Source: an uncultured Bacteroidota bacterium (GTDB taxonomy: Bacteria; Bacteroidota; Bacteroidia; Bacteroidales; UBA12481). From it: a DNA stretch of 64,000 nucleotides. The notes under the pieces were generated by a model. The model made no database searches. It was not told where the DNA came from and saw only the letters and a list, made by a program, of their open reading frames with translations. The stretch lies in assembly GCA_903851365.1 (NCBI GenBank), contig CAINOB010000020.1:106986-170985 (forward strand), read 5' to 3'. This document shows, piece by piece, positions 10,285 to 61,885 of this stretch; the stretch's first letter is position 1, and every line of letters starts with the position of its first letter. Made by a program: the position numbers and the translations under genes.

Positions 10285-11697
10285 ATGAAACCATTTCCAG
10301 ATTCGAAATTTCTCCTGACCAATCCTGTTGCAGAACGTCTTTATTCAGGTCAGGCTGCTAAAATGCCGGTAATCGATTACCATTCGCATTTGAGTCCCAG
10401 GATGATTGCTGAGGACCATCAATTTGAGAATCTGACCCAGGCATGGTTATACGGTGATCACTATAAATGGAGGGCCATGAGGGCTAATGGCGTGCCCGAA
10501 AGATACATTACCGGTGATGCCACTGATTACGAAAAATTCGAGAAATGGGCTGAGACAGTGCCTTACACCATGGGAAATCCACTCTTTCACTGGACCCATC
10601 TTGAACTACAACGTTACTTTGGAATCACCAGTCAACTGTCACCGGTCACCTGCCACAGTATTTACGAGAAAGCTTCGGCCATGCTAAGAACCGCCGAATT
10701 CTCTGTTCACTCCCTTCTCGAAAAAATGAATGTTGAATTGGTTTGTACAACAGATGATCCGCTGGATTCACTCGATTATCATCGTAGTATCGCCGATTCA
10801 GACTGGGGCATTAAAGTGCTGCCAACCTGGCGCCCGGATAAAGTTCTTGCATTCGATCAGACCGAAAACTGGAACCGTTATGTGGATACACTGGCCTCAA
10901 TAACCGGTATTCAAATTACCCATTTTCAAGATCTCCTGAATGCACTTCAAGTCCGTCATGATTATTTTCATAACCATGGATGCAGGCTTTCAGATCACGG
11001 GTTGGAATCCTTTCCGCCTCTTGATATCAACCCCTCAGAAACTGAAGATGCTTTTCAAACCATCCGGCTTCAAAAAGAAGGCCTTAAAGGCCCGGGTCTT
11101 AGTCAACAAATGGCAGGTGTGACACTTCTGGCCCTGGCGTGCATGGATGCTGATAAAGGCTGGGTTCAACAATTTCACCTCGGTGCACTCCGCAACAGTA
11201 ATAGCAGGAGCCTCTCTGTGCTTGGGCCAGATACCGGCTTTGATTCCATCAGCGATATTCCTGTTGCGCAACCGATGGCAAGGTTTCTCGACCATCTGGA
11301 ATCAGAAGGTAAGCTTGCAAAAACCATCCTCTACAACCTTAATCCTGCACAAAACGAGGTATTTGCCTCTATGACAGGGAACTTTCAGGATGGATCAGTT
11401 CCTGGAAAAATACAATGGGGATCAGCTTGGTGGTTCCTCGATCAAAAAGAAGGTATGGAGACGCAGCTTAAAACACTGGCCAATTTCGGTCTGCTAAGCA
11501 GATTCGTAGGAATGCTTACCGACTCCCGCAGCTTTCTTTCCTACCCCAGGCATGAGTATTTCCGGCGCGTACTTTGCAATTTCATTGGAGAATCAGTTGA
11601 ACGCGGGGAATGGCCGGACAACGAAACTTGGCTCGGTGAAATGGTTGAGAATATTTGTTATCGAAACGCCGTAAATTATTTTGAATTTGATCAATAA
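10285..11697 (+). CDS. uxaC: Glucuronate isomerase (uronate isomerase)
   Basis: MKPFPDSKFLL N-terminus. Metal site IDYHSHLSP. YGDHYKWRAMRANG. About 470 aa. The ORF track extends to 10264, but ATG 10285 matches the usual UxaC start. Confidence 0.9.
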   Translation: MKPFPDSKFLLTNPVAERLYSGQAAKMPVIDYHSHLSPRMIAEDHQFENLTQAWLYGDHYKWRAMRANGVPERYITGDATDYEKFEKWAETVPYTMGNPLFHWTHLELQRYFGITSQLSPVTCHSIYEKASAMLRTAEFSVHSLLEKMNVELVCTTDDPLDSLDYHRSIADSDWGIKVLPTWRPDKVLAFDQTENWNRYVDTLASITGIQITHFQDLLNALQVRHDYFHNHGCRLSDHGLESFPPLDINPSETEDAFQTIRLQKEGLKGPGLSQQMAGVTLLALACMDADKGWVQQFHLGALRNSNSRSLSVLGPDTGFDSISDIPVAQPMARFLDHLESEGKLAKTILYNLNPAQNEVFASMTGNFQDGSVPGKIQWGSAWWFLDQKEGMETQLKTLANFGLLSRFVGMLTDSRSFLSYPRHEYFRRVLCNFIGESVERGEWPDNETWLGEMVENICYRNAVNYFEFDQ

Positions 11698-11734: not shown

Positions 11735-12955
11735 ATGGTACTAGAAAAGTTCTCGTTCGGTATTGGCGATCGTTTTGGGAAGGAAGGCAAGGCTCAGCTC
11801 AGAGCTATCCAGGAAATTAACCGTCAGGGATTTCCTGTGGTACCAGTGTGGAATAAATCGAACCGCGAGCATGAGTTGGTTGGAACCACCCAACAGGCAG
11901 TAAGGATGGAAGCCGACGAAGCAGTAAAAGTAAATGGCTGGAATGAAAATTATTATGTAGATGCCGATCATATTACAATGGCCAATGTTGACCGGTTCAT
12001 TGATGTCAGCGATTTTTTCACATTAGATGTAGCCAGTTTCATTGGCAGGCCTGCTGATGCAAAACTAAAATCTGATTTTCTCAAGCGTACTCCCGCAACC
12101 GGAATTCCGGGTTTCAGTGAAGAAGAGGCAATATATGACATTTCACTTTTTGCAGATAATTACCTGACAGCCATCCAGGAAGTTAAAAGGTTGCATGAGT
12201 ATATTAAATCAAAAAAACCATCAGGGATTATTGAGATATCCATGGATGAGGTTTCGATGGCACAGAGTCCGCTCGACCTTTATTTCATTCTAAAAGAACT
12301 TAAACTTGCTGATATTGAACCACATACTATCGCTCCGAAATTCACGGGTTTATTTCCCAAGGGAGTTGATTATGAAGGAGATAAGGAAGTATTTGCCCAT
12401 GAATTTGAGCAGGATGTTCAGATATTAAACCTCGTAAGCGATCGATTGGAGTTCAACCATGACATTAAACTCAGCATCCACTCCGGCTCCGATAAATTCT
12501 CAATTTATCCCCTGATGCGGGACATCATTTTCAAGAACCATTCAGGCATACATATTAAAACTGCAGGAACAACCTGGCTCGAGGAAGTTATTGGCCTGGC
12601 AAGGGGTGGAGGCGATGGGTTGCGACTGGCCAAGGAAATATATTGTCAGGGAATCAAACGATTTGAGGAGCTTTCAGCCCCCTATTCTTCAGTCCTGCAC
12701 CTTGATAACAAACAGCTCCCACCACCAAAAGAGGTCCTCAGCTGGAATTCAGCCCGGTTTTCAAAAACCTTGATTCATGATCAGAGCTGTCGGGATTATA
12801 ATCTCCATTTCAGGCAACTTGTACATATTTCTTATAAAATAGCCGCTGAAATGGGAACAGAATTCATGGATGCCCTGGATCATTATCGCGAGCCCATTGA
12901 GGAACAAGTATATACCAATCTGTTTGACAGGCACTTGAGGAGGATATTCAGATAG
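11735..12955 (+). CDS. uxaE: Tagaturonate/fructuronate epimerase (UxaE family)
   Basis: SFGIGDRFGKEG, YYVDADHI and SIHSGSDKFSIYP motifs as I recall them for the UxaE family. The gene sits next to uxaC. Confidence 0.6.
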   Translation: MVLEKFSFGIGDRFGKEGKAQLRAIQEINRQGFPVVPVWNKSNREHELVGTTQQAVRMEADEAVKVNGWNENYYVDADHITMANVDRFIDVSDFFTLDVASFIGRPADAKLKSDFLKRTPATGIPGFSEEEAIYDISLFADNYLTAIQEVKRLHEYIKSKKPSGIIEISMDEVSMAQSPLDLYFILKELKLADIEPHTIAPKFTGLFPKGVDYEGDKEVFAHEFEQDVQILNLVSDRLEFNHDIKLSIHSGSDKFSIYPLMRDIIFKNHSGIHIKTAGTTWLEEVIGLARGGGDGLRLAKEIYCQGIKRFEELSAPYSSVLHLDNKQLPPPKEVLSWNSARFSKTLIHDQSCRDYNLHFRQLVHISYKIAAEMGTEFMDALDHYREPIEEQVYTNLFDRHLRRIFR

Positions 12956-12986
12956 GTATCGGGTATCGGGTATCGGGTATCGGGTT
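12956..12986. repeat. Heptanucleotide tandem repeat (GTATCGG, register TCGGGTA), about 4 units, starting immediately after the uxaE TAG stop
   Basis: Read directly: tag gtatcgg gtatcgg gtatcgg gtatcgg gtt. Confidence 0.95.
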
Positions 12987-13002
12987 CCCGCTTTCGCGGG
13001 AA
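12985..13002. terminator. Perfect 7-bp GC-rich hairpin (ttcccgc-tttc-gcgggaa) between the convergent uxaE and GH94-like genes. Possible bidirectional terminator, but without a clear U-tract.
   Basis: The inverted repeat is read directly. The loop is GAAA on the minus strand. There is no T-run on either side. Confidence 0.35.
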
Positions 13003-13023
13003 TGAGAGAGAAAGGCTTTGTGA

Positions 13024-16000
13024 TTACAATTGAATTTCAACAATATTTTCCTGTTTGTTCAGCAAGGCCAAAAATGAACCGGTCGGAATTTCTGAGCCAC
13101 CATTCCGGTAATTGTTTTTCCCAAGGGTGAAATTGATCTCTGTACCGTTGATGCTAATACATTTGGGACTATAGTTGTTTTGCCTGACCGCATATCTAAA
13201 GGTTATTGAATGACCCATGAAATCAATAGAAGCAGATAATCCATCCATCGAGTGCGGAATAACAGGATCAATAATCACTTTTTCAAACTCAATTCGCAAT
13301 CCCAGGAGCCTGGTAATCATTAGGCTGACATAAATACCTGGTCCACTTGAATATACTCTCCAACCTCCTCTGAGTGTAATATCTCCGGATTTAATAACAT
13401 CATAGAGCTCATCGGCCTCATAACGACTTTTAAATACGACATCGGAACTGCTGTAATAGCAATTTGACTGCCTTTTATCACCACAAGGAACAATTTCATT
13501 GTAATCAACAGGAATTGCCTGGCGAAGCGCCTTTACAAAAGCCTCCGCCTTACCAGTCAGAGCCAATGACTCAGCATATCGGATGTGCTCGTGAACATAC
13601 ATGAGGCCTATTTCGCGACCAAAAAATGTACTGCTTTCGGCACGCTGAAAAATGGTTTGTAAGCCACCCTGATACTTCAACGGGCGATCCATCAATCTGG
13701 CCCCATCTGGGCCCATAAGATGGTTTTCAATGAGTTCCTGATGATAGGCAGCCTGCTCATCTGTAAAGATTTCACTGATTATACCCCTCTCCATCGGCAA
13801 AAGACTGTAGTGCACACCCGTCCTGATATCCGAAGGATGAAGCATCAAACTGATGGTGTCGTCTTCTTCAACCAGACCATAACCGGCTACCACGCAGTCT
13901 CTCACAAGGTATTTATTAAAATCAGTTTTGATATTCTCACAAATATTCTTTAACCGTTCTGCTTCTATAGTATTACCAGCAAGCTGATATATTGCCTGAT
14001 ATTGCTTAAAGGCCTGATAGTTCATTTCAACGGTCCAGCTCGATATCATTCGTTGAGCCAGGTCCTTGCTGACAGGTTGAAGCGAATCGTTCCAGTCACC
14101 ACCACCAAAAGGCACGAGAGACGTTCCGGGGATAAACGAATTTATGATCATTTTGATCAGTCTCTCAACATGCTCACTTACAGATGTTTTATCGGCATTT
14201 ACAGTCACGCTTTCATGAAAATACGGAACCTCCTGGTCAAGGATTTTAAGGTCGCCGGTAACTTTGATGTAGTTGCTCAGCGCGATGATTACCCAGTAGA
14301 AAACATCTCCGTGGGAATCTTGCGCCCTTACATGCGAGTAACTGTCGAACATCCACCATTGAGGCCATCCGCCATCAACATTCTGATTAGAAAAAATAGT
14401 TTTCAAAACCATTTTTGCGGCATCATACTTTTCCAAAGTAAGCAACAGGTCAAGAGGTCCCTGCGACACATCTCGCGTACCCCAGGCTGCGCCACTGAAT
14501 TGTTCCAATCCATAAGGTGTGAGGAAATGAGTAAGTGCATTCATCCCATACCAGGGTAGTATTTCTGCAATAGCCCGAGTATCCTTTTGATCCCCTTCAA
14601 TGACGAGATTACAGCTCATTTGATGCCAGAAAGTTTGCCCGGCCTGGCAATCGATGAGCCACTGATTATCGGCGCTTTCAATTAATGAATCAGGTGCTTC
14701 CCGACAAACTTCACCAATGAAACTCAAACAAAAATCATTGGTATTACTAACATCAAGGACAAAAAGAGAACTTGGGCTCTTACGATCTAAGCCAATTAAC
14801 TCATCGCTCCCAGCCTTATAATCAGACTGATGACTGTTGATGTTAATTTTGAAACCGGCATTTGGAAATTTACTCGAAATCAAAGATCCGGCTTCGGGCA
14901 TTGCTATAAACTGATGCGGTTCAACACCTGGGATTACTTTCCAGCCGTTAAGTGTATCAAAATCATGAGTAATAAGCAATCGGACTTTTGGGCCATTAAT
15001 AACCTTAAAGTCAGTGTTTACTCTTGGCTCGGCGACAGAGGTCCAGGTGCGCACCTGAAAGCAATACCCATTTGTTTTATAGATCCAGCGACAATAATTC
15101 AGCCCCATTTCAAATGCTGATGGAACTCCAAGCAGAAAACAGAGGCCATCTAACTCTACAAAAATACGCTGACCAGATTCGCGCGAAACATTAAACTGGC
15201 TCGTACAAACCGAAAGCAGGACATTGAAATTTGTATTCCCCTGGGATAAATGCGAATTGAATACCCCAAATGCAAAAGCCGTAGTAGATACTATATTTTC
15301 ATCTGGTGTAAAACCAGTATTAGCCTGCATAATGTGTGCGTGTGGCCGATCGGCCAATGTTTCTTTTGCACGTAAAACCACATGACTCCCCTGCCCGCTG
15401 AAAAAGGACAACAGCTGCCCGTTCACCGTATCACAATGACGCTTTTCGTTACCGAAATATTGGTCGATTTCCTGACTTGTCAAATCAACGATTGGCAAAA
15501 ATTGAGAAGTATTGAATAGGTTTGAATCGGGTATCAGGTTTCGGGTATCGGGTATCGGGTATCGGGTATCGGGATTAAGATTGAATTCCAGAAAAAGCTC
15601 GGGCAGCTGTTTTAAGTCATTAGCCGATGTTGCCTTTTGATGATCAGGAAGATAAGTTGTTGCAAATGCACTGCGGCTATGACTGCCCGCACCAAGTTTG
15701 AATGGCTTTTCCTTTAAGGCAATAATCGAAGATTCCCCTGCATAATTCCCTCCCTGGTTATCAGAAAGCAAACCCTCAGGCAAACCAGTTTCGCGGTAAG
15801 ATTTGCCATAAAACTGCATTCCATCCACACTTCCGTTTGCAGCAAAATTCTTACTTGCGATCATCAGCCAGGGATACCCGACAGACTCCTTCATATTTTG
15901 ACGGCAGCAAATGACCGCCCCATAATTTGGATCTTCAAGAACCAAACGTTCAAGATACTGACTTACGTAGTATTCATTGATTAGTCCGCCTGCCATAGGT

Positions 16001-16374
16001 TTTAAACCAACGTCCAGCAAATAGATCAAGTCGATTTCAACCGGATCACTCGTTGTATTTTCAATATCGATCTGCCATTGCCAGCTCAGGCTTTTTGTGG
16101 ATAGTTGCAAATTGCAGGAATAATCAAGACCAGCCCAGGTGCCTATGGCGCAAAAACCCTCATCGGTTAATTGATGGCTGCTATTGGATTCCGGACCCAT
16201 TAAGGGTTTAAAAACAAAAGGGTCCGACCTTTTTCGAAGAAAAATATTTGCCCCGGATTTCATCAGGGGCGTGGCAGTTTTCAGACTTATCCTGATAGGG
16301 TCAGCTTCAATATGTTTCACTGATCCATTTTCCAGAAATTCAATGGAAAGGCCAAGTGAATTTGAAACCTTCAT
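13024..16374 (-). CDS. GH94-like glycoside phosphorylase (cellobiose-phosphorylase superfamily, long form; candidate 1,2-beta-oligoglucan phosphorylase), cytoplasmic
   Basis: 1116 aa with no signal peptide. (alpha/alpha)6 catalytic-region motifs GGWPQWWMFDS, PFGGGDWNDSLQP (GH94 DWND catalytic Asp context), RGGWRVYSSGPGIY. The start ATG directly abuts the stop of the GH35-like gene. Confidence 0.65.
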   Translation of the reverse strand: MKVSNSLGLSIEFLENGSVKHIEADPIRISLKTATPLMKSGANIFLRKRSDPFVFKPLMGPESNSSHQLTDEGFCAIGTWAGLDYSCNLQLSTKSLSWQWQIDIENTTSDPVEIDLIYLLDVGLKPMAGGLINEYYVSQYLERLVLEDPNYGAVICCRQNMKESVGYPWLMIASKNFAANGSVDGMQFYGKSYRETGLPEGLLSDNQGGNYAGESSIIALKEKPFKLGAGSHSRSAFATTYLPDHQKATSANDLKQLPELFLEFNLNPDTRYPIPDTRNLIPDSNLFNTSQFLPIVDLTSQEIDQYFGNEKRHCDTVNGQLLSFFSGQGSHVVLRAKETLADRPHAHIMQANTGFTPDENIVSTTAFAFGVFNSHLSQGNTNFNVLLSVCTSQFNVSRESGQRIFVELDGLCFLLGVPSAFEMGLNYCRWIYKTNGYCFQVRTWTSVAEPRVNTDFKVINGPKVRLLITHDFDTLNGWKVIPGVEPHQFIAMPEAGSLISSKFPNAGFKININSHQSDYKAGSDELIGLDRKSPSSLFVLDVSNTNDFCLSFIGEVCREAPDSLIESADNQWLIDCQAGQTFWHQMSCNLVIEGDQKDTRAIAEILPWYGMNALTHFLTPYGLEQFSGAAWGTRDVSQGPLDLLLTLEKYDAAKMVLKTIFSNQNVDGGWPQWWMFDSYSHVRAQDSHGDVFYWVIIALSNYIKVTGDLKILDQEVPYFHESVTVNADKTSVSEHVERLIKMIINSFIPGTSLVPFGGGDWNDSLQPVSKDLAQRMISSWTVEMNYQAFKQYQAIYQLAGNTIEAERLKNICENIKTDFNKYLVRDCVVAGYGLVEEDDTISLMLHPSDIRTGVHYSLLPMERGIISEIFTDEQAAYHQELIENHLMGPDGARLMDRPLKYQGGLQTIFQRAESSTFFGREIGLMYVHEHIRYAESLALTGKAEAFVKALRQAIPVDYNEIVPCGDKRQSNCYYSSSDVVFKSRYEADELYDVIKSGDITLRGGWRVYSSGPGIYVSLMITRLLGLRIEFEKVIIDPVIPHSMDGLSASIDFMGHSITFRYAVRQNNYSPKCISINGTEINFTLGKNNYRNGGSEIPTGSFLALLNKQENIVEIQL
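15527..15575. repeat. Heptanucleotide tandem repeat (TCGGGTA) of 7 units, 4 of them perfect and consecutive, inside the GH94-like CDS. It is read in frame as PDTRYPIPDTRNLIPDS.
   Basis: Read directly: tcgggta tcaggtt tcgggta tcgggta tcgggta tcgggta tcgggat. This is the same unit as at 12956-12986. Confidence 0.95.
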
Positions 16375-18807
16375 TTAATATATTTTGATATTAAGAACTA
16401 GCTCCTCCTTATGTTTATGGCTGTAAGTAAACACAATACGTCCATTTATCCGTTCTATTTTAATGTTTTCGCCCCCTATGGTGGCAGAAATGACCTGATT
16501 CGCTTTCTGGCCTTCCAGAACCGCCTCACCTGGCAAGTCACGATCACCAACCAAGACAAGCTGAAGTTGTCCATCCGCATGCTGAACACTGAGGATATCC
16601 GAAGTGGAGTGAAGAATTTTAATTCCGGATGATATCTCCAAACATATCGGAGTCAATACCCCATACAATGATGGCCAGAGCATCTCATCCCCATTGTATG
16701 GAATTGTTATCTTTTGGCCGTTACCGGGATGTGTATAGCTGATTTTCCCTGTCTGTTCCTCGTTATAATAGTTTCCGATAAAAAGCATGGCTGAACTATT
16801 ATCCGTAAAACGTTCCCGAACTGCAAGGTTGACATTATTCGAATCAGTTTGCCGGAGCTTTGCACCTGATTTTTCCAGAAACGCCTCATAAACTGGCTTA
16901 TGACCTTCAGTGTCAAATCCGATCCATGTACCTAAATGAATAGCTGTTCCCTTTCCTAGGGGTTTTGAAAATCCGCACACCGTGCCATTGATTGTGCGTG
17001 CTATTATTTCGGCGCCAGAAAGTGATTCCTCGGAATAGCTGATCAGGGGGTTAGCACATTTGATATCCTTAAGATCATAAACATCAATCAGCGGAGAGTT
17101 TATAATCTCTATACCGGAAGGTTCAATAGCGATGGCCTGACGAATTATCGAGCACGGGTTCTGCGACATTTCCCGGTCAGGGAGACAGGGAAAGATAACC
17201 AGGTTACCGCCTTCATGTGTATAATCCACCAGAATCTGCTGGTCGCGGGCATTCATCTCATCAGTACTGAAGGCCCAAACCTGCTTATACCCGCTTAATT
17301 GTTGAGCGGATGTTTGGCAGAGGTCTGCCATATCATAATCGATATTCAGCACCTGGAGAACTTTCAGTAACCCGTCAAAATAAGCCGGTCGCCGGATAGA
17401 CGAAGCATTAAAAAGAAGCTGACTTGCACCGTTTTCTGGCCTTTCCAGCTCGGTGGAGTAATATGGAGGGTAGAAAAGCACGCAAACTTCTGATTTTCGC
17501 TTGGCGTTTACAATCAGGCTTTCACTGGTATTAATCAACCTGCTCATATGCTTGACCAATGGGAAGGCGCTGGTTCGTTCACCTTCGGGCGTCAGTGGGT
17601 TGAACCAATAAAAAGTTTCGCCGGAATAGCCCCTGTGCCTGGGGTTACGGCCCTGCGAAAACATATAATGATTCCAGCCGGTGAGACCATTGGCTACACT
17701 GGCTTTGTAAAAAAGTTCCATTTCCCGGGGATTGGTTACCACATGATATTCACGCGAACCATTCTGGAACTCAGCTGCAAACAGTGGTTTATTGCCCTGC
17801 ATCGCCATCGTTATGTCATTGATTATCCTGTCGTCATGCATGTTTCGATACGACAGGTATTCCGGGATATGATCCACGCCAAAGAGGATCTCACTCTTAT
17901 CACCGAACAAATCGTCATACATGGTGATGTTGACAGGAAACTCATAACCGCTTCCGTAAATCCATCCGGGAAGATTATGATACAACGGCACCGATACGCC
18001 TTTGGCCCTCGCCATGGCAGTAAGCATTTTCAGATAATCGCCATAGTAAGTCCTCCAGAAGCAGTGCCATTCATAATCACGGCCACGATCGCCTTTTGAA
18101 AGGTATGGTAACCTACCGTCTGGCGGAAGTTCTATCTGACTAAAATTATGGAATTCGGTCCCCCAAAGTCCATTAATTTCTTCGATGGAGGAAAATCTTA
18201 TTTGCAGGTAAAATATAAATCGATTTTTCACCTCTTCATTATAATCAGCCTGATGGGCAAGCCATGAAAACACACCTATCTCATTGCAGATTTGCATCAT
18301 GATGATGGGTCCGCCGACTGTTATTTCGCGCTGACCAATAAATGGCATAACCTGATCGTACCACAACCCTACATATTTGAGGTAGTTTTCATTAAACAGG
18401 CTGACACCGTCGCTGGCCACTGTAACACCTGCACTGTTGTGCATCCTGACTTCGTCACCAAATTCCTCAAGGAACCAATCGGGCAGCCCTGCGCCCCTGG
18501 TTTCTGCCAGAATAAAAGGTCCGGGTTTAACGATGCAATTTAATCCGTGAGCCTGGCAAAGTTGCAGCCAGCCATTAAGATCACGTTCAGGGCAGGTGGT
18601 GCCATCGAAGTCGAAAACACCTTTAGATGATTCGTGCCATGCCCATGGAACATAGGAACTTATGGTAGTCAAACCAGCATCTTTTGCTGCTTCTAGATGT
18701 TTATCCCACAATCCACGCTTAATCCTGAAATAATGGATCTCTCCCGAATTTAGAAAAACCTTTTTCCCATTCAGGCAGAAGTTACCTTCACTAATATTAA
18801 AGGTCAT
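16375..18807 (-). CDS. GH35-family protein (beta-galactosidase fold), cytoplasmic; candidate beta-1,2-glucoside-active enzyme
   Basis: GEIHYFRI, SSYVPWAWHE, GGPIIMMQICNEIG (acid/base NE), PLFAAEFQNG (nucleophile E). No signal peptide. It overlaps the upstream transporter gene by 11 nt. Confidence 0.75.
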   Translation of the reverse strand: MTFNISEGNFCLNGKKVFLNSGEIHYFRIKRGLWDKHLEAAKDAGLTTISSYVPWAWHESSKGVFDFDGTTCPERDLNGWLQLCQAHGLNCIVKPGPFILAETRGAGLPDWFLEEFGDEVRMHNSAGVTVASDGVSLFNENYLKYVGLWYDQVMPFIGQREITVGGPIIMMQICNEIGVFSWLAHQADYNEEVKNRFIFYLQIRFSSIEEINGLWGTEFHNFSQIELPPDGRLPYLSKGDRGRDYEWHCFWRTYYGDYLKMLTAMARAKGVSVPLYHNLPGWIYGSGYEFPVNITMYDDLFGDKSEILFGVDHIPEYLSYRNMHDDRIINDITMAMQGNKPLFAAEFQNGSREYHVVTNPREMELFYKASVANGLTGWNHYMFSQGRNPRHRGYSGETFYWFNPLTPEGERTSAFPLVKHMSRLINTSESLIVNAKRKSEVCVLFYPPYYSTELERPENGASQLLFNASSIRRPAYFDGLLKVLQVLNIDYDMADLCQTSAQQLSGYKQVWAFSTDEMNARDQQILVDYTHEGGNLVIFPCLPDREMSQNPCSIIRQAIAIEPSGIEIINSPLIDVYDLKDIKCANPLISYSEESLSGAEIIARTINGTVCGFSKPLGKGTAIHLGTWIGFDTEGHKPVYEAFLEKSGAKLRQTDSNNVNLAVRERFTDNSSAMLFIGNYYNEEQTGKISYTHPGNGQKITIPYNGDEMLWPSLYGVLTPICLEISSGIKILHSTSDILSVQHADGQLQLVLVGDRDLPGEAVLEGQKANQVISATIGGENIKIERINGRIVFTYSHKHKEELVLNIKIY

Positions 18808-44975: not shown

Positions 44976-45860
44976 ATGAAAATTAAACTCGTGACCCTCA
45001 GTATATTCCTTTCGATAAGCACCATGGCATTTACGCAGTCGGTGCCAATGGGGCAAGTACTGGAAGGATTAACGATGCAGAGCCAGATTCTTGGACATGC
45101 AGTAAACTTTGCAGTGTACCTGCCGCCTGATTACAAGGCCGGAACTCGCCTATATCCAGTTGTGTATCTCCTTCATGGGTACACAGATAATGAATCAGGT
45201 TGGATACAATTCGGTGAAATTAATACGATTGCCGACCGTGCCATTGAATCCAGGGAAATACCTCCGATGATTATTGTAATGCCTGATGCTAAGGCTACCT
45301 GGTATATGAATAACGCCGATGGTTCGGAAAAATACGAAGATATGTTCATTCAGGAATTCATTCCCTGCATCGACAAAAACTACAGAACAAGGCCAACGAA
45401 GGAATTTCGCGGGATTGCGGGGTTATCAATGGGCGGCTTCGGTTCCCTCCTCTATTCGATGAAGTATCCCGATATGTTTGTTGCCTGCGCAGCCTATAGC
45501 GCTGCGGTTTGGACCGATGAGGAAATGAAAGCCAGACCTCTCGGTAATCGTGATGGTTTGTTCGAAAAACTATTTGGCCTGACAGCTGACAAATCGCTGC
45601 TAACTCCGCATTACAGGGCGAACAGCATTCTCGATCTGGTTTCAACTCTGCCAAAAGAGCAAATCGAAAAGGTCAGATTTTATATTGATTGCGGGGATGA
45701 TGATTTTCTTTACAAGGGAAATTCTGCTTTGCACGTCCTTCTTCGCGACAAACAAATTAAGCATGAATTCCGTACCCGCGATGGTGGTCACTCCTGGGTA
45801 TACTGGAGGACAGGTATTACAGACGGACTGAAATTTATCGGCGAAAGCTTTCACCGATAG
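44976..45860 (+). CDS. Secreted esterase (PF00756 putative-esterase / CE1-like alpha/beta hydrolase)
   Basis: Signal peptide. YPVVYLLHG, nucleophile elbow GLSMGGFGS, C-terminal GGHSW. Confidence 0.8.
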   Translation: MKIKLVTLSIFLSISTMAFTQSVPMGQVLEGLTMQSQILGHAVNFAVYLPPDYKAGTRLYPVVYLLHGYTDNESGWIQFGEINTIADRAIESREIPPMIIVMPDAKATWYMNNADGSEKYEDMFIQEFIPCIDKNYRTRPTKEFRGIAGLSMGGFGSLLYSMKYPDMFVACAAYSAAVWTDEEMKARPLGNRDGLFEKLFGLTADKSLLTPHYRANSILDLVSTLPKEQIEKVRFYIDCGDDDFLYKGNSALHVLLRDKQIKHEFRTRDGGHSWVYWRTGITDGLKFIGESFHR

Positions 45861-45870
45861 ACGCTGAAGA

Positions 45871-45912
45871 AGACAAAAGACAAAAGACAAAAGAAAAGAG
45901 ACAGAAGATTTA
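45871..45912. repeat. Heptanucleotide tandem repeat: (AGACAAA) x3 perfect, then degenerate units (agaaaag agacaga agattta), in an intergenic spacer
   Basis: Read directly, 10 nt after the esterase TAG stop. Confidence 0.9.
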
Positions 45913-60483: not shown

Positions 60484-61158
60484 ATGAAGGACAGGTCAAA
60501 ACAGATTTTCAGTATAATTATAACATTGGTATTGATATTCACTGGCATCTATATCATATCCCTTTTTGGCAATCCTGATGGTGAATATCACAGGAGTTCC
60601 ATATTCGGAGCTTTAGTTGGCCTGATTCTTATCCGCTTTTATCAGAATTACTTTATTGGAAACTGGGTTTACAATGCCCGATTGCTTTTAAATGCAGTGG
60701 CAATCGGCCTTGGATACCTGCTTTGGACCATTCTTGAATTGATAACTAAAGGATTGGATTCCAGTTCTTTAAAAACTCTTTTAATGGAGTCCTTAATGGG
60801 ATTCGCATTCGGACTGTTCATTGGTCTGTACCAGTTTTTCACAAACCTTTATCGAAAAAAGAAAACTCCCTTTGGAGGAAACGAGGAACTCATGGTCAAT
60901 AGCAGCGCATACATAATATATTCAAGTGGAACAGTTTCTGGAAAAGGAAGAGCGATCCTGTTGCGAGACCAGTTAATATTCCTGACCCCAGGTTCTCCTG
61001 AACAGTCGTTGCTTTTAAAAGACATCAGGAATATTGAGGTTGGCAGGACTCTTGGATTCCCGAATAAGCTGATCCTCTTTTTAGATGGAGCTGAATCGAT
61101 GGCACTTTCCGTTTCGATGCCCCAATACTGGAAAAACAAAATTGAGAAATTGTCATAA
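60484..61158 (+). CDS. Membrane protein (about 4 TM) with a C-terminal GRAM/bacterial-PH-like domain, paralog 1
   Basis: Hydrophobic N-half. C-half GKGRAILLRDQLIFL...IEVGR...LILFLDG...SVSMPQYWKNKIEKL. ATG 60484 is preferred over TTG 60436. Confidence 0.55.
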   Translation: MKDRSKQIFSIIITLVLIFTGIYIISLFGNPDGEYHRSSIFGALVGLILIRFYQNYFIGNWVYNARLLLNAVAIGLGYLLWTILELITKGLDSSSLKTLLMESLMGFAFGLFIGLYQFFTNLYRKKKTPFGGNEELMVNSSAYIIYSSGTVSGKGRAILLRDQLIFLTPGSPEQSLLLKDIRNIEVGRTLGFPNKLILFLDGAESMALSVSMPQYWKNKIEKLS

Positions 61159-61177
61159 TCCATTTAATATTAGAAGA

Positions 61178-61855
61178 ATGCTAGTTAAACCACAGCGGGT
61201 ACCCAGATCAATACTTTTTAATTTTATTGTTGTTATTATCCTCATCCTGGTTGGCCGATACACTAGTTTAAAATTGGATGAAGTCGTGAATATTTTAGCT
61301 GGAATGCTGATCGGCGGAATATTCAATACGATTTTTGAGGGCATCATGGTCTACATTTGGGCATCCAAACTTCGATACTTTATGAAAGGATTTGAAGGTG
61401 GTTTTCTCTTCTTATTTATTAGCCTGTCTTTTCTAATTATCGGCACAAGAGTAGTAAGTGCTGACAAGACGCTTCTTATGACTGCTTATGGTGCCTGTCT
61501 GGGACTTATCTGGGGTCTTTTGGATTACCTGATCACTGACAATCGTGAAAAGAAACATCCTTATACCGGTAGTGAAAAGCCGATCTTAAAGTATAAGGCA
61601 AACCTCTACTTTTTCGGGCAGCTACATGGCCGGGGGATCATATTGCTGCTTTCGGACCGGCTGTTGTTTATCGGGGATAATTCGGAGAACCGGGAAATAA
61701 GGCTTAATGAAATCGTAAGCATGGATGTTCATAGTTCGATCCTGTTTCCATTCAAGCTGGATGTATTTTTAGAGGATACCGTCATTTCGATTAATGTCGC
61801 CATGCCTTATCTTTGGAAGAAGAAAATTGAAAAAATAGTTGGCAGTAGGCAGTAG
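61178..61855 (+). CDS. Membrane protein (about 4 TM) with a C-terminal GRAM/bacterial-PH-like domain, paralog 2
   Basis: Same architecture as 60484-61158. GRGIILLLSDRLLFI...MDVHS...LDVFLED...NVAMPYLWKKKIEKI. ATG 61178 avoids an overlap with paralog 1. Confidence 0.55.
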   Translation: MLVKPQRVPRSILFNFIVVIILILVGRYTSLKLDEVVNILAGMLIGGIFNTIFEGIMVYIWASKLRYFMKGFEGGFLFLFISLSFLIIGTRVVSADKTLLMTAYGACLGLIWGLLDYLITDNREKKHPYTGSEKPILKYKANLYFFGQLHGRGIILLLSDRLLFIGDNSENREIRLNEIVSMDVHSSILFPFKLDVFLEDTVISINVAMPYLWKKKIEKIVGSRQ

Positions 61856-61857
61856 CA

Positions 61858-61885
61858 AATCCGATACCTGATACCCGACACCCAA
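61858..61885. repeat. Degenerate heptanucleotide repeat (aatccga tacctga tacccga cacccaa), the reverse complement of the TCGGGTA family, in the spacer before the GH38-like gene
   Basis: Read directly. It begins 3 nt after the TAG stop at 61853-61855. The preceding 14 nt are ggcagta ggcagta. Confidence 0.8.

Follow-up and report, generated by a model that had tools for sequence, protein, structure and literature searches.

Does a tandem repeat with a 7-nt unit, located inside the reading frame of a bacterial enzyme, act as a genetic switch, or is it simply translated as protein? This question is raised by a tract of TCGGGTA-type heptamers in a putative phosphorylase gene on a stretch of 64,000 nt (the window) from an uncultured Bacteroidales bacterium. 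A preliminary description of the window had considered a phase-variable enzyme, the insertion of a mobile repeat and a repeat tolerated in a surface loop. Our analysis argues for the last of these readings: the coding tract is probably a tolerated passenger repeat of a lineage-specific G-rich GGGTATC family, grown in the linker of the phosphorylase, and not a programmed switch.

Anatomy of the coding tract

The coding tract was the top-scoring repeat of the window in Tandem Repeats Finder (15526–15573, period 7, 6.9 copies, 90% matches, score 82), in agreement with the seven TCGGGTA-type units previously noted within the coding sequence; the program returned ATCGGGT and GGTATCG as consensus sequences of the window tracts of this type. 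The 33-nt perfect run also described before was recovered as an exact periodic core (Table 1), and the units flanking it are decayed. The perfection of the core implies a recent expansion or an ongoing homogenisation. A pattern of two TCGGGTA units with at most two mismatches matched the window 11 times, compared to 0.18 matches expected, and none of 100 shuffled sequences reached 11.

The core satisfies the G-quadruplex (G4) motif G3N4 x4 on the + strand, and the regular expression G3N1-7 x4 was matched on this strand by both perfect tracts of the window (4.4 and 4.7 units). The G4 prediction by ViennaRNA was marginal, with −15.9 kcal/mol with and −15.6 kcal/mol without G4. As the gene is transcribed from the G-rich strand as template, its mRNA contains the C-rich sequence (UACCCGA)n, and this mRNA-sense strand was predicted to be unstructured (−0.7 kcal/mol). 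The TCGGGTA unit is stop-free in all six frames. Translation of the tract within the frame of the GH94-like gene, as reported earlier, was confirmed and yields a peptide rich in Pro, Asp, Thr and Arg.

Table 1. Positions of the heptamer tracts and associated features in the window.
Feature	Position	Strand	Remarks
Host gene, intact 1116-aa GH94/SOGP-type 1,2-beta-oligoglucan phosphorylase (assigned by sequence)	13024..16374	-	Pfam, PDB, orthologues
Complete tract of about 7 TCGGGTA-type heptamers	15527..15575	+	G-rich strand on +
Perfect tract core, 33 nt, 4.7 units, five GGG runs	15541..15573	+	Exact periodic run
Codons for residues 267-284, NPDTRYPIPDTRNLIPDS	15523..15576	-	Repeat-encoded share of inter-domain linker
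Intergenic copy, 4.4 perfect units	12955..12985	+	Overlaps TAG stop (12953-12955) of ORF 11735..12955(+)
REP-like hairpin TCCCGCTTTCGCGGGAATGA	12986..13005	+	Directly abuts the 12955-12985 tract
Heptamer tract (AAGACAA)5.6	45870..45908	+	Starts 10 nt after stop of ORF 44976..45860
Different heptamer (AGTAGGC)2.7	61837..61855	+	Overlaps stop of ORF 61085..61855
Degenerate copy, about 3.3 units, 81% matches	61861..61885	-	Ends 6 nt upstream of ATG 61891

The host enzyme and its linker

Judged by its sequence, the host ORF encodes a GH94/SOGP 1,2-beta-oligoglucan phosphorylase. The Pfam domains SOGP_N, SOGP_2nd, Glyco_hydro_94 and SOGP_4th were each detected above cut-off, residues 26–1106 matched PDB entry 5H3Z with E=1.7e-173, and orthologues with 65–76% identity are similar over the full length. 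The gene is the last one of a beta-1,2-glucan PUL operon, and its product, which carries no signal peptide, is a cytoplasmic metabolic enzyme. The 1,2-beta-oligoglucan phosphorylase of Lachnoclostridium phytofermentans (PDB 5H3Z) resembles it over the entire length and shares all four SOGP-type Pfam domains, with the exception of the linker, the sequence of which does not align.

The repeat-encoded segment falls between SOGP_N (residues 12–234) and SOGP_2nd (residues 312–551). Among homologues, the linker consensus consists almost exclusively of 'x', and the length of the linker segment is 32 in 111 of 123 sequences. The mapping of the segment on a predicted structure, which had been suggested before, placed residues 269–284 in a coil with pLDDT values <50. 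The quality of this model is no more than moderate (mean pLDDT 68) and some conserved regions score low as well, so that the disorder call rests mainly on the hypervariability of the sequence. The tract thus occupies a hypervariable, length-conserved inter-domain linker which is predicted to be flexible and exposed, as expected for a repeat tolerated in a surface loop. A rare-codon pause at the linker was considered and rejected; the codons of the tract are not unusually rare in the window (CGA, 11% of Arg codons; ATA, 21% of Ile codons).

Orthologues and independent repeats at the same linker

The TCGGGTA tract is absent from the orthologues compared. The closest of them, encoded by locus L122 (76% amino acid identity), has an ordinary linker sequence with a single ACCCGAT seed and reads ...CAA CTG ATT TCA CCC GAT AAA, compared to AAC CTG ATA CCC GAT TCA in the window. 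The 3′ units of the coding tract align with this seed-containing sequence, and the window linker shows a net gain of 9 nt (3 amino acids). As the linker length was nearly kept and the orthologue holds the ACCCGAT seed, a local expansion is suggested rather than a transposition. The tract is lineage-specific.

In two other orthologues, the same linker contains octanucleotide repeats, namely (TACAGTCT)7.9 in L158 and (TCTTCTCC)5 in L159, which arose there independently, and two diverse homologues showed low-complexity expansions in the linker. Outside these linker cases, no strong periodicity was seen in about 275 homologues. The 7-nt and 8-nt repeats, which converge on one linker of a single enzyme family, provide a natural map of the tolerance of this fold towards arbitrary sequences, which may be useful for protein engineering.

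Other heptamer copies in the window

An intergenic copy and an inverted copy of the unit had been described and both exist, although their boundaries are 12955–12985 (not 12956–12986) and 61861–61885. The intergenic copy sits between convergent genes, and its G-rich strand is the coding strand of the ORF whose stop codon it overlaps. The spacer which holds it measures 68 nt in the window versus 18 nt in the orthologous locus L122. Its arrangement with the adjacent hairpin recurs in another Bacteroidetes MAG (L096). A role of tract and hairpin as terminator was rejected, as a consensus scan revealed no intrinsic terminator. For the degenerate copy, the G-rich strand is antisense relative to the gene starting at ATG 61891 (+), and the adjoining (AGTAGGC)2.7 tract makes it part of a compound array. 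Since an (AAGACAA)5.6 tract is also present, the genome carries several heptamer families.

Of the three TCGGGTA-type copies in 64 kb, two are intergenic, and contigs from elsewhere break inside the intergenic tract; taken together, this suggests a genome-wide dispersal in this organism.

The heptamer in other genomes

A genome scan identified the TCGGGTA unit at >120 loci of other genomes, from >10 phyla with GC contents of 33–73%; among these fetched loci, only L001, L122 and L123 overlap with the window. The occurrence of the unit at these loci and at the intergenic sites of the window supports the earlier statement that the repeat exists independently of coding constraint. Tracts with three, four and five units were found 41, 39 and 10 times, respectively, with a sharp fall after four. 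In 827 kb of TCGGGTA-bearing loci, we counted 263 exact tandems with period 7, compared to 14 with period 6 and 9 with period 8. Nearly half of the period-7 tandems (126/263) consist of other heptamers, and the process generating these tandems is specific to heptamer length. Many of the arrays are compound; cyanobacterial examples involve STRR1 and STRR3, with the TCGGGTA unit adjoining CCCCAGT and CAACAGT, and in Phycisphaeraceae loci the tract is embedded in a conserved composite element.

With respect to genes, low-GC loci of other genomes yielded 6 tracts inside called ORFs, 13 near no gene and 32 gene-end placements, in which one tract may be counted more than once. Since no frame of the unit contains a stop, ORF calling in high-GC loci is noisy. 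An orientation bias in other genomes, with the C-rich strand in the 5′UTR of the mRNA, was not significant (18 versus 9, p=0.12). In viral contigs, the composition-matched controls (GGGTTAC)3, (GGGATCT)3 and (GGTGATC)3 were found 15, 3 and 10 times, compared to 6 for the target; as these controls were as common, the idea of TCGGGTA as a special, horizontally spread unit was dropped. A literature search for the TCGGGTA unit itself found no relevant paper.

Relation to the GGGNATC repeat class

Read as GGGTATC, the unit of the coding tract fits the GGGNATC type of G-quadruplex-forming heptameric simple sequence repeats, which were described as GGGAATC in Xanthomonas and GGGGA(C/T)T in Nostoc (Rehm et al. 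2015, PMC4692102). Repeats of this class are dispersed over the genome, about 90% of them (89–93%) are intergenic, and their modal length of four units equals the G4 requirement; oligonucleotides of this type form G4 structures in vitro (PMC4692102). The describers found no association with mobile elements, considered phase variation unlikely and demonstrated no function; intragenic copies were left out of their analyses and none was mapped to a protein linker (PMC4692102).

By sequence type, the coding tract is a member of these heptameric repeats, with a G4 capacity predicted from its motif. The perfect tracts of the window, with 4.4 and 4.7 units, are close to the class mode of four, and two of the three window copies are intergenic. 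Their placement also agrees with the class: the intergenic copy overlaps a stop codon with its G-rich strand coding, the degenerate copy lies antisense upstream of a gene's start codon, and for the coding copy the G-rich strand is the non-coding one, which the class prefers. In contrast, the window unit has T at position 4, where A is conserved in the Xanthomonas repeat, and the host is a Bacteroidales MAG with roughly 44% GC, unlike the high-GC xanthomonad or cyanobacterial hosts of the class. The assignment would extend the GGGNATC class to Bacteroidales.

Length variation of the coding tract

Gain or loss of one or two 7-nt units was expected to shift the frame, and simulation confirmed this: changes of +/-7 or +/-14 nt led to stop codons at residues 278–299, while changes of 21 nt stayed in frame. 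In the available assemblies the tract length is constant. An identical phosphorylase product was found on seven contigs and a product of the same length in P0121; L123, with 2 SNPs relative to the window over 3450 nt, carries the same tract. A flank-anchored metagenome scan for variants of up to two units in either direction found one contig, with the same length. An exact look-up of eight predicted variant products in about 15 billion proteins retrieved none of them, and the remaining members of the protein cluster are either of the same length or fragments unrelated to the linker, with no length variant among them. As assemblies represent the majority allele and near-clonal populations were sampled (99.94–100% identity), low-frequency length variants could exist unseen. 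The earlier proposal of a phase-variable terminal PUL enzyme is consequently not borne out by these data, in which eight contigs agree in length and neither the scan nor the look-ups revealed another allele.

Origin of the tract and alternative explanations

The GGGTATC family is presumably related to the STRR sequences of cyanobacteria and to the long simple-sequence repeats in the survey of Mrazek and co-workers. Its tracts may arise and change length by replication slippage, in which 7-nt units appear to be favoured in many bacteria, and would settle mostly beside gene ends. The most likely starting point of the coding copy is a single ancestral ACCCGAT, which provides the codons of a conserved Pro-Asp. 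Growth would have taken place in the putatively disordered and hypervariable linker from the N-terminal domain to the second beta-sandwich domain, the one site of the phosphorylase that would accept almost any sequence. The tract may survive because its unit is stop-free, its Pro/Asp/Thr/Arg-rich peptide is flexible, and selection acts against out-of-frame or length-altering alleles; occasional slippage would merely yield null alleles. We infer slippage as the origin, growth in situ from the seed and neutrality of the tract from the combined evidence. The locus would then illustrate clearly how a G-rich, non-triplet heptamer of a dispersed kind enters a gene and turns into ordinary protein sequence.

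A contingency locus, at which slipped-strand mispairing reversibly switches the terminal PUL phosphorylase ON or OFF (truncated at about residue 280–300) by the mechanism known from the heptanucleotide repeats of neuO in E. coli or hmw/HI1369 in H. influenzae, is unlikely. The unit length is indeed not divisible by three, the core comprises 4.7 perfect units, and changes of one or two units lead to early stops with three-unit changes remaining in frame, but no length variant was found among the contigs, in the flank-anchored scan or in the eight look-ups. Moreover, 4.7 perfect units are short compared to 3–53 (mode 20) in neuO and 13–38 in hmw, known heptamer switches usually having 8–50 units, and the flanking units are decayed. 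The neuO gene sets a precedent for a heptamer switch in a coding region (PMC13001214): its AAGACTC repeats lie in the 5′ coding region and number 3–53, most often 20; of 64 genomes, 65.6% are OFF, and about 7% of the cells of a culture carry length variants (PMC13001214). As in neuO, the 7-nt unit of the window gene specifies a 7-aa periodic peptide within the ORF, and the full-length product is made only if the frame is kept. However, the neuO repeat is located at the 5′ end and its product modifies the surface capsule, whereas the window tract lies 24% into the gene for a cytoplasmic catabolic enzyme without a surface or restriction-modification function, and it belongs to a mostly intergenic family for which phase variation was thought unlikely by its describers. 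The 8-nt, likewise non-triplet repeats of two other lineages speak for switching insofar as three independent repeats of this kind in one linker could reflect selection for mutability. In a further variant, which we judge rather improbable, non-triplet repeats, of 7 nt in the window and of 8 nt in the two other lineages, would repeatedly land in the SOGP linker and be kept as a low-rate reversible knock-out of the cytoplasmic end-step of a costly pathway for beta-1,2-glucan utilisation, and a G-quadruplex on the template strand could add local instability. If true, a free-living environmental member of the Bacteroidales would possess a contingency locus which affects a metabolic enzyme and not a surface antigen; real length heterogeneity in reads, if seen, would make an environmental PUL enzyme a case of phase variation.

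It is similarly improbable that the tract is a functional nucleic-acid element or a regulator-binding array, with the peptide being incidental. The G3N4 x4 motif on the + strand, the G4 formation by GGGNATC oligonucleotides in vitro together with the match between modal length and G4 requirement (PMC4692102), the positional rules followed by the intergenic copies near start and stop codons, and the regulator binding proposed by MacGregor for the 5′-UTR heptamer arrays of the TAACTGA type (PMC4679880) are consistent with such a role. Orthologues nevertheless lack the tract, the mRNA-sense strand is unstructured, the orientation bias in other genomes is not significant, matched control heptamers are as common in viral contigs, and the class has no function demonstrated even by its describers (PMC4692102). 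Introduction of the array into the gene by a small MITE- or REP-like mobile element is very unlikely. Three sites in 64 kb, the REP-like hairpin next to the intergenic copy, which is paired with the tract in another Bacteroidetes MAG too, and the composite element of Phycisphaeraceae would fit this explanation; the coding copy itself has neither a hairpin nor terminal inverted repeats nor a target-site duplication. A linker longer by just 3 amino acids, 3′ units aligning with an ancestral sequence which already held the ACCCGAT seed, and a repeat class not associated with mobile elements (PMC4692102) also contradict the insertion that had been considered earlier. An assembly or sequencing artefact is hardly conceivable: L001 and L123, both short-read contigs, are broken within the intergenic tract, which indicates that TCGGGTA repeats disturb assembly, yet independent assemblies, made from different samples and with different pipelines, agree exactly in the coding tract, which keeps the 1116-aa frame open.

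Comparison with other heptamer repeats in genes

We compared the passenger repeat proposed here with related systems. The long simple-sequence repeats of prokaryotes were surveyed by Mrazek, Guo and Shah in 2007; according to the summary in PMC4679880, coding-region repeats usually have units in multiples of three. As far as this summary goes, those repeats and the cyanobacterial STRR sequences resemble the present ones in the dominance of heptanucleotides, the sporadic occurrence across phyla and the compound arrays, whereas the window enzyme, unlike the coding-region repeats of the survey, keeps a 7-nt unit in frame. The TAACTGA repeats of Beggiatoaceae, Cyanobacteria and Bacteroidetes (MacGregor 2015, PMC4679880) are dispersed intergenic heptamers near start codons, as is the window unit. 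Their rare intragenic copies were found at the periphery of proteins or outside domains, one of them in a glycosyl hydrolase, and were proposed to persist only where the protein tolerates them (PMC4679880). In contrast to TCGGGTA, the TAACTGA unit has stops in all three forward frames, and its intragenic copies are terminal, whereas the window copy is internal, between domains. Apart from the window phosphorylase, real enzymes tolerate the TCGGGTA tract in frame: in other genomes, we found it in a DegT aminotransferase, a GH57 protein, PurH and an Fe-S flavoprotein.

Host gene and anatomy of the repeat

The open reading frame carrying the heptanucleotide repeat (13024..16374, minus strand) is intact, encodes 1116 amino acids and matches the solved 1,2-beta-oligoglucan phosphorylase 5H3Z with E=1.7e-173. 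Its orthologues share 65-76% identity over the full length, and no signal peptide was found at its N-terminus. Upstream on the same strand lie genes for a Y_Y_Y regulator, SusC, SusD, two PF10091 (GH144-type) glucanases, an MFS transporter and a GH35-like enzyme; the minus strand of 13024-36312 also encodes Big_5 and laminin-G surface proteins and an F5/8 type C protein. Together these genes point to a beta-1,2-glucan utilisation locus (PUL), of which the phosphorylase is the predicted final, cytoplasmic step.

Direct reading of the plus strand at 15527-15575 gave one TCGGGTA, one TCAGGTT, four consecutive TCGGGTA and a terminal TCGGGA. Tandem Repeats Finder reported 6.9 copies of period 7 at 15526-15573 (90% matches) with a score of 82, the highest in the window. 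The 33-nt perfect tract of the preliminary description was recovered as an exact periodic run at 15541-15573, and a two-unit pattern with up to two mismatches matched 11 times in the window versus 0.18 expected from shuffles. The same unit does recur at the two further sites named there, but their coordinates were revised and the inverted copy is degenerate. This latter array, reading GATACCC, directly continues (AGTAGGC)n.

Coordinates of host-gene domains, repeats and linker sequences
Feature	Coordinates	Description	Basis
Phosphorylase domains	ORF 13024..16374(-)	SOGP_N 12-234; SOGP_2nd 312-551; Glyco_hydro_94; SOGP_4th	Pfam
Intergenic copy	12955-12985	G-rich strand on +; perfect, 4.4 units	
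Inverted copy	61861-61885	G-rich strand on antisense strand; degenerate	
(AAGACAA)5.6	45870-45908	begins 10 nt past stop of ORF 44976..45860	
(AGTAGGC)2.7	61837-61855	overlaps stop of ORF 61085..61855; abuts degenerate GGGTATC copy	
Orthologue P0048, (TACAGTCT)7.9	L158 1000-1062	8-nt unit, in frame, read as LQSYSPTV repeats	
Orthologue P0030, (TCTTCTCC)5	L159 2050-2106	8-nt unit, in frame	
DegT-family aminotransferase	L003 1213-1242	in frame, PDTRYPIPDT, residues 65-74	Pfam
GH57 enzyme	L039 4687-4719	in frame, immediately ahead of domain	Pfam
Fe-S/flavin oxidoreductase, 1363 aa	L048 2852-2881	in frame, inter-domain	Pfam
PurH	L071 6219-6247	in frame, SGIGYRVSGI, G-rich strand coding	Pfam
Linker codons, window		GAA TTC AAT CTT AAT CCC GAT ACC CGA TAC CCG ATA CCC GAT ACC CGA AAC CTG ATA CCC GAT TCA AAC	
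Linker codons, L122		GAA TTC ATT GAC CAG GTT TCT GTT CCG GAT CAG GAC CAA CTG ATT TCA CCC GAT AAA AAC	

A permissive inter-domain linker

The coding tract is translated as NPDTRYPIPDTRNLIPDS at residues 267-284, in agreement with the earlier estimate of about 267-283, and occupies the gap separating the first two Pfam domains, SOGP_N and SOGP_2nd. Across 60 aligned orthologues no residue of this segment is conserved, and its flanks (EF... and ...KNLFNTS) are conserved; its length is 32 residues in 111 of the 123 homologues and 35 in the window protein. When the segment was mapped onto an AlphaFold2 model of moderate quality (mean pLDDT 68), residues 269-284 were predicted as coil with pLDDT <50. 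Inter-domain position, variability, constant length and low-pLDDT coil together indicate that the tract sits in a hypervariable, length-constrained and probably disordered linker.

The octanucleotide repeats of P0048 and P0030 occupy the identical linker position. Two more of 148 diverse family representatives carry low-complexity expansions there (one poly-Ser, one Ala/Val/Arg-rich), and strong peptide periodicity was confined to this linker in a scan of ~275 homologues. The simplest reading is that the linker is the sole part of the fold able to accept arbitrary sequence; its convergent use by 7-nt and 8-nt repeats is the most useful by-product of this analysis.

The TCGGGTA unit is stop-free in all six frames, as direct inspection and translation established, and copies are read in frame in other enzymes (see table). 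Intragenic copies of TAACTGA repeats survive at the protein periphery (MacGregor, PMC4679880), a conclusion which agrees with that drawn here for TCGGGTA coding copies.

Heptamer repeats across genomes

As summarised by MacGregor (PMC4679880), Mrazek and colleagues found that heptanucleotides were the commonest type among long simple-sequence repeats and proposed polymerase slippage favouring 7 nt. An exact scan for (TCGGGTA)3 in one genome per species yielded at least 120 loci spanning Bacteroidota, Acidobacteriota, Planctomycetota, Chloroflexota, Gemmatimonadota, Cyanobacteria, Nitrospirota, Proteobacteria, Actinobacteria and Spirochaetes. The matches listed cover at least 10 phyla and a locus GC of 33% to 73%, include isolates of Streptomyces, Methylobacterium, Pandoraea, Rhodococcus, Komagataeibacter, Nodularia and Microcoleus, and comprise many copies in several genomes and many tracts at contig ends. 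In the 827 kb that these listed matches comprise, exact tandems of period 7 numbered 263 (period 6, 14; period 8, 9), 126 of them built from other units, and TCGGGTA tracts often adjoined other heptamers, including the classical cyanobacterial STRR units CCCCAGT and CAACAGT. TCGGGTA does not appear to be privileged over other heptamers of equal composition: in viral contigs, 15, 3 and 10 loci were obtained with three composition-matched controls versus 6 with the target.

A REP-like hairpin, TCCCGCTTTCGCGGGAATGA, lies directly 3' of the intergenic tract (12986-13005), where a consensus scan detected no terminator. Tract and hairpin are also paired in another Bacteroidetes MAG, Loclat_bin-16290 (L096 around 6498, - strand), and hairpins resembling it are present in L111 and L029. 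In Phycisphaeraceae (L036, L038, L049, L094, L103, L104, L120) the tract lies inside a conserved composite, ordered as hairpin-like left flank (ccaacgccggtcctgagcgaagcgaaggtccggg), (TCGGGTA)n and (TTTCTGC)n, which recurs at many sites on the same chromosomes.

The literature already describes the class to which, by its sequence, the window repeat belongs. The GGGNATC-type heptamers of Rehm et al. (PMC4692102) are dispersed over the genome, with 89-93% of copies intergenic and 7-11% intragenic; four units is their modal length, equal in number to the G-tracts that a quadruplex requires. Within ORFs they are under-represented on the coding strand, and G4 formed in vitro. The window unit, read as GGGTATC, is of this type, and the window copies agree with its positional rules: the intergenic copy overlaps the TAG stop of a plus-strand gene, the inverted copy stops 6 nt short of ATG 61891, the G-rich strand of the coding copy is the template strand, and both perfect tracts (the coding one of 4.7 units) match the sequence motif G3N4 x4. 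The coding tract would be a further copy.

Origin of the coding tract and alternative explanations

The closest orthologue, at locus L122, shares 76% amino acid and 73% nucleotide identity. In the alignment, the final 1.7 'units' of the coding tract fall opposite ancestral CAA CTG ATT TCA CCC GAT, which in L122 holds one exact ACCCGAT, the codons of a conserved Pro-Asp; the 33-nt perfect core stands in place of ~30 nt of unrelated L122 sequence, with a net gain of 9 nt. The tract itself is absent from L122. The UxaE/phosphorylase spacer measures 68 nt in the window versus 18 nt in L122, the extra sequence being intergenic tract plus hairpin. Because L122 differs at both linker and spacer, both tracts are lineage-specific. 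We infer that the coding tract arose by local expansion from the ACCCGAT seed. Insertion of a mobile repeat, as once proposed, is improbable, as the coding tract has neither inverted repeats nor target duplication.

The coding tract is likely to be a copy of the known G-rich heptamer kind that expanded within a permissive linker, is tolerated there as a passenger and is kept in frame by selection. Tolerance in the protein had been offered in the preliminary description beside a phase-variable terminal PUL enzyme. The frameshift arithmetic behind the latter holds: simulated changes of +/-7 or 14 nt produced stops at residues 278-299, while 21 nt stayed in frame. Tract length is constant across the eight contigs found. 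The identical 1116-aa product occurs on 7 contigs (NCBI, ENA), which for practical purposes excludes an assembly or sequencing artefact, and a JGI contig encodes a product of equal length with 2 substitutions. Of two contigs overlapping the gene, L001 is 100% identical over 3452 nt and L123 differs by 2 SNPs/3450 nt with an identical tract. A flank-anchored metagenome scan allowing 33-63 nt between flanks gave L123 only, and none of eight products predicted for 1-4-unit changes occurred among ~15 billion proteins. Rare length variants may have escaped notice, since assemblies are consensus alleles and the sampled populations nearly clonal. The neuO switch has 3-53 units, is OFF in 65.6% of 64 genomes and varied in ~7% of cells in one culture (PMC13001214); H. 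influenzae heptamer switches have 8-38 units. By contrast, the coding tract has no more than 4.7 perfect units, its neighbouring units are decayed, and it lies mid-gene in a cytoplasmic enzyme. Programmed phase variation is therefore unlikely here, and Rehm et al. judged it unlikely for their class, which is without known function (PMC4692102). A DNA- or RNA-level function of the coding tract, with which the quadruplex motif would be compatible, is less likely still.

L001 and L123, independent short-read contigs, share both end points, 12979/12980 and 16429/16430 of the window; the former falls inside the intergenic tract and is hence understandable, and no repeat was seen near 16430. In the UxaC (glucuronate isomerase) gene, a coding segment with heptamer periodicity occupies equivalent positions in the window (10625-10656) and L122 (6760-6786). 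It is perfect in L122, where (TCACTTG)3.9 is translated as SHLSLVTCHS, and in the window it has decayed to TCACCAG TCAACTG TCACCGG TCACCTG; it resembles an older heptamer tract, in frame, that is becoming ordinary coding sequence. At L122 7655-7692, a hexanucleotide (TGGGTG)6.3 is translated as a TPTPTPTPTPTP stretch of a protein without Pfam match and is an ordinary triplet-compatible linker repeat.
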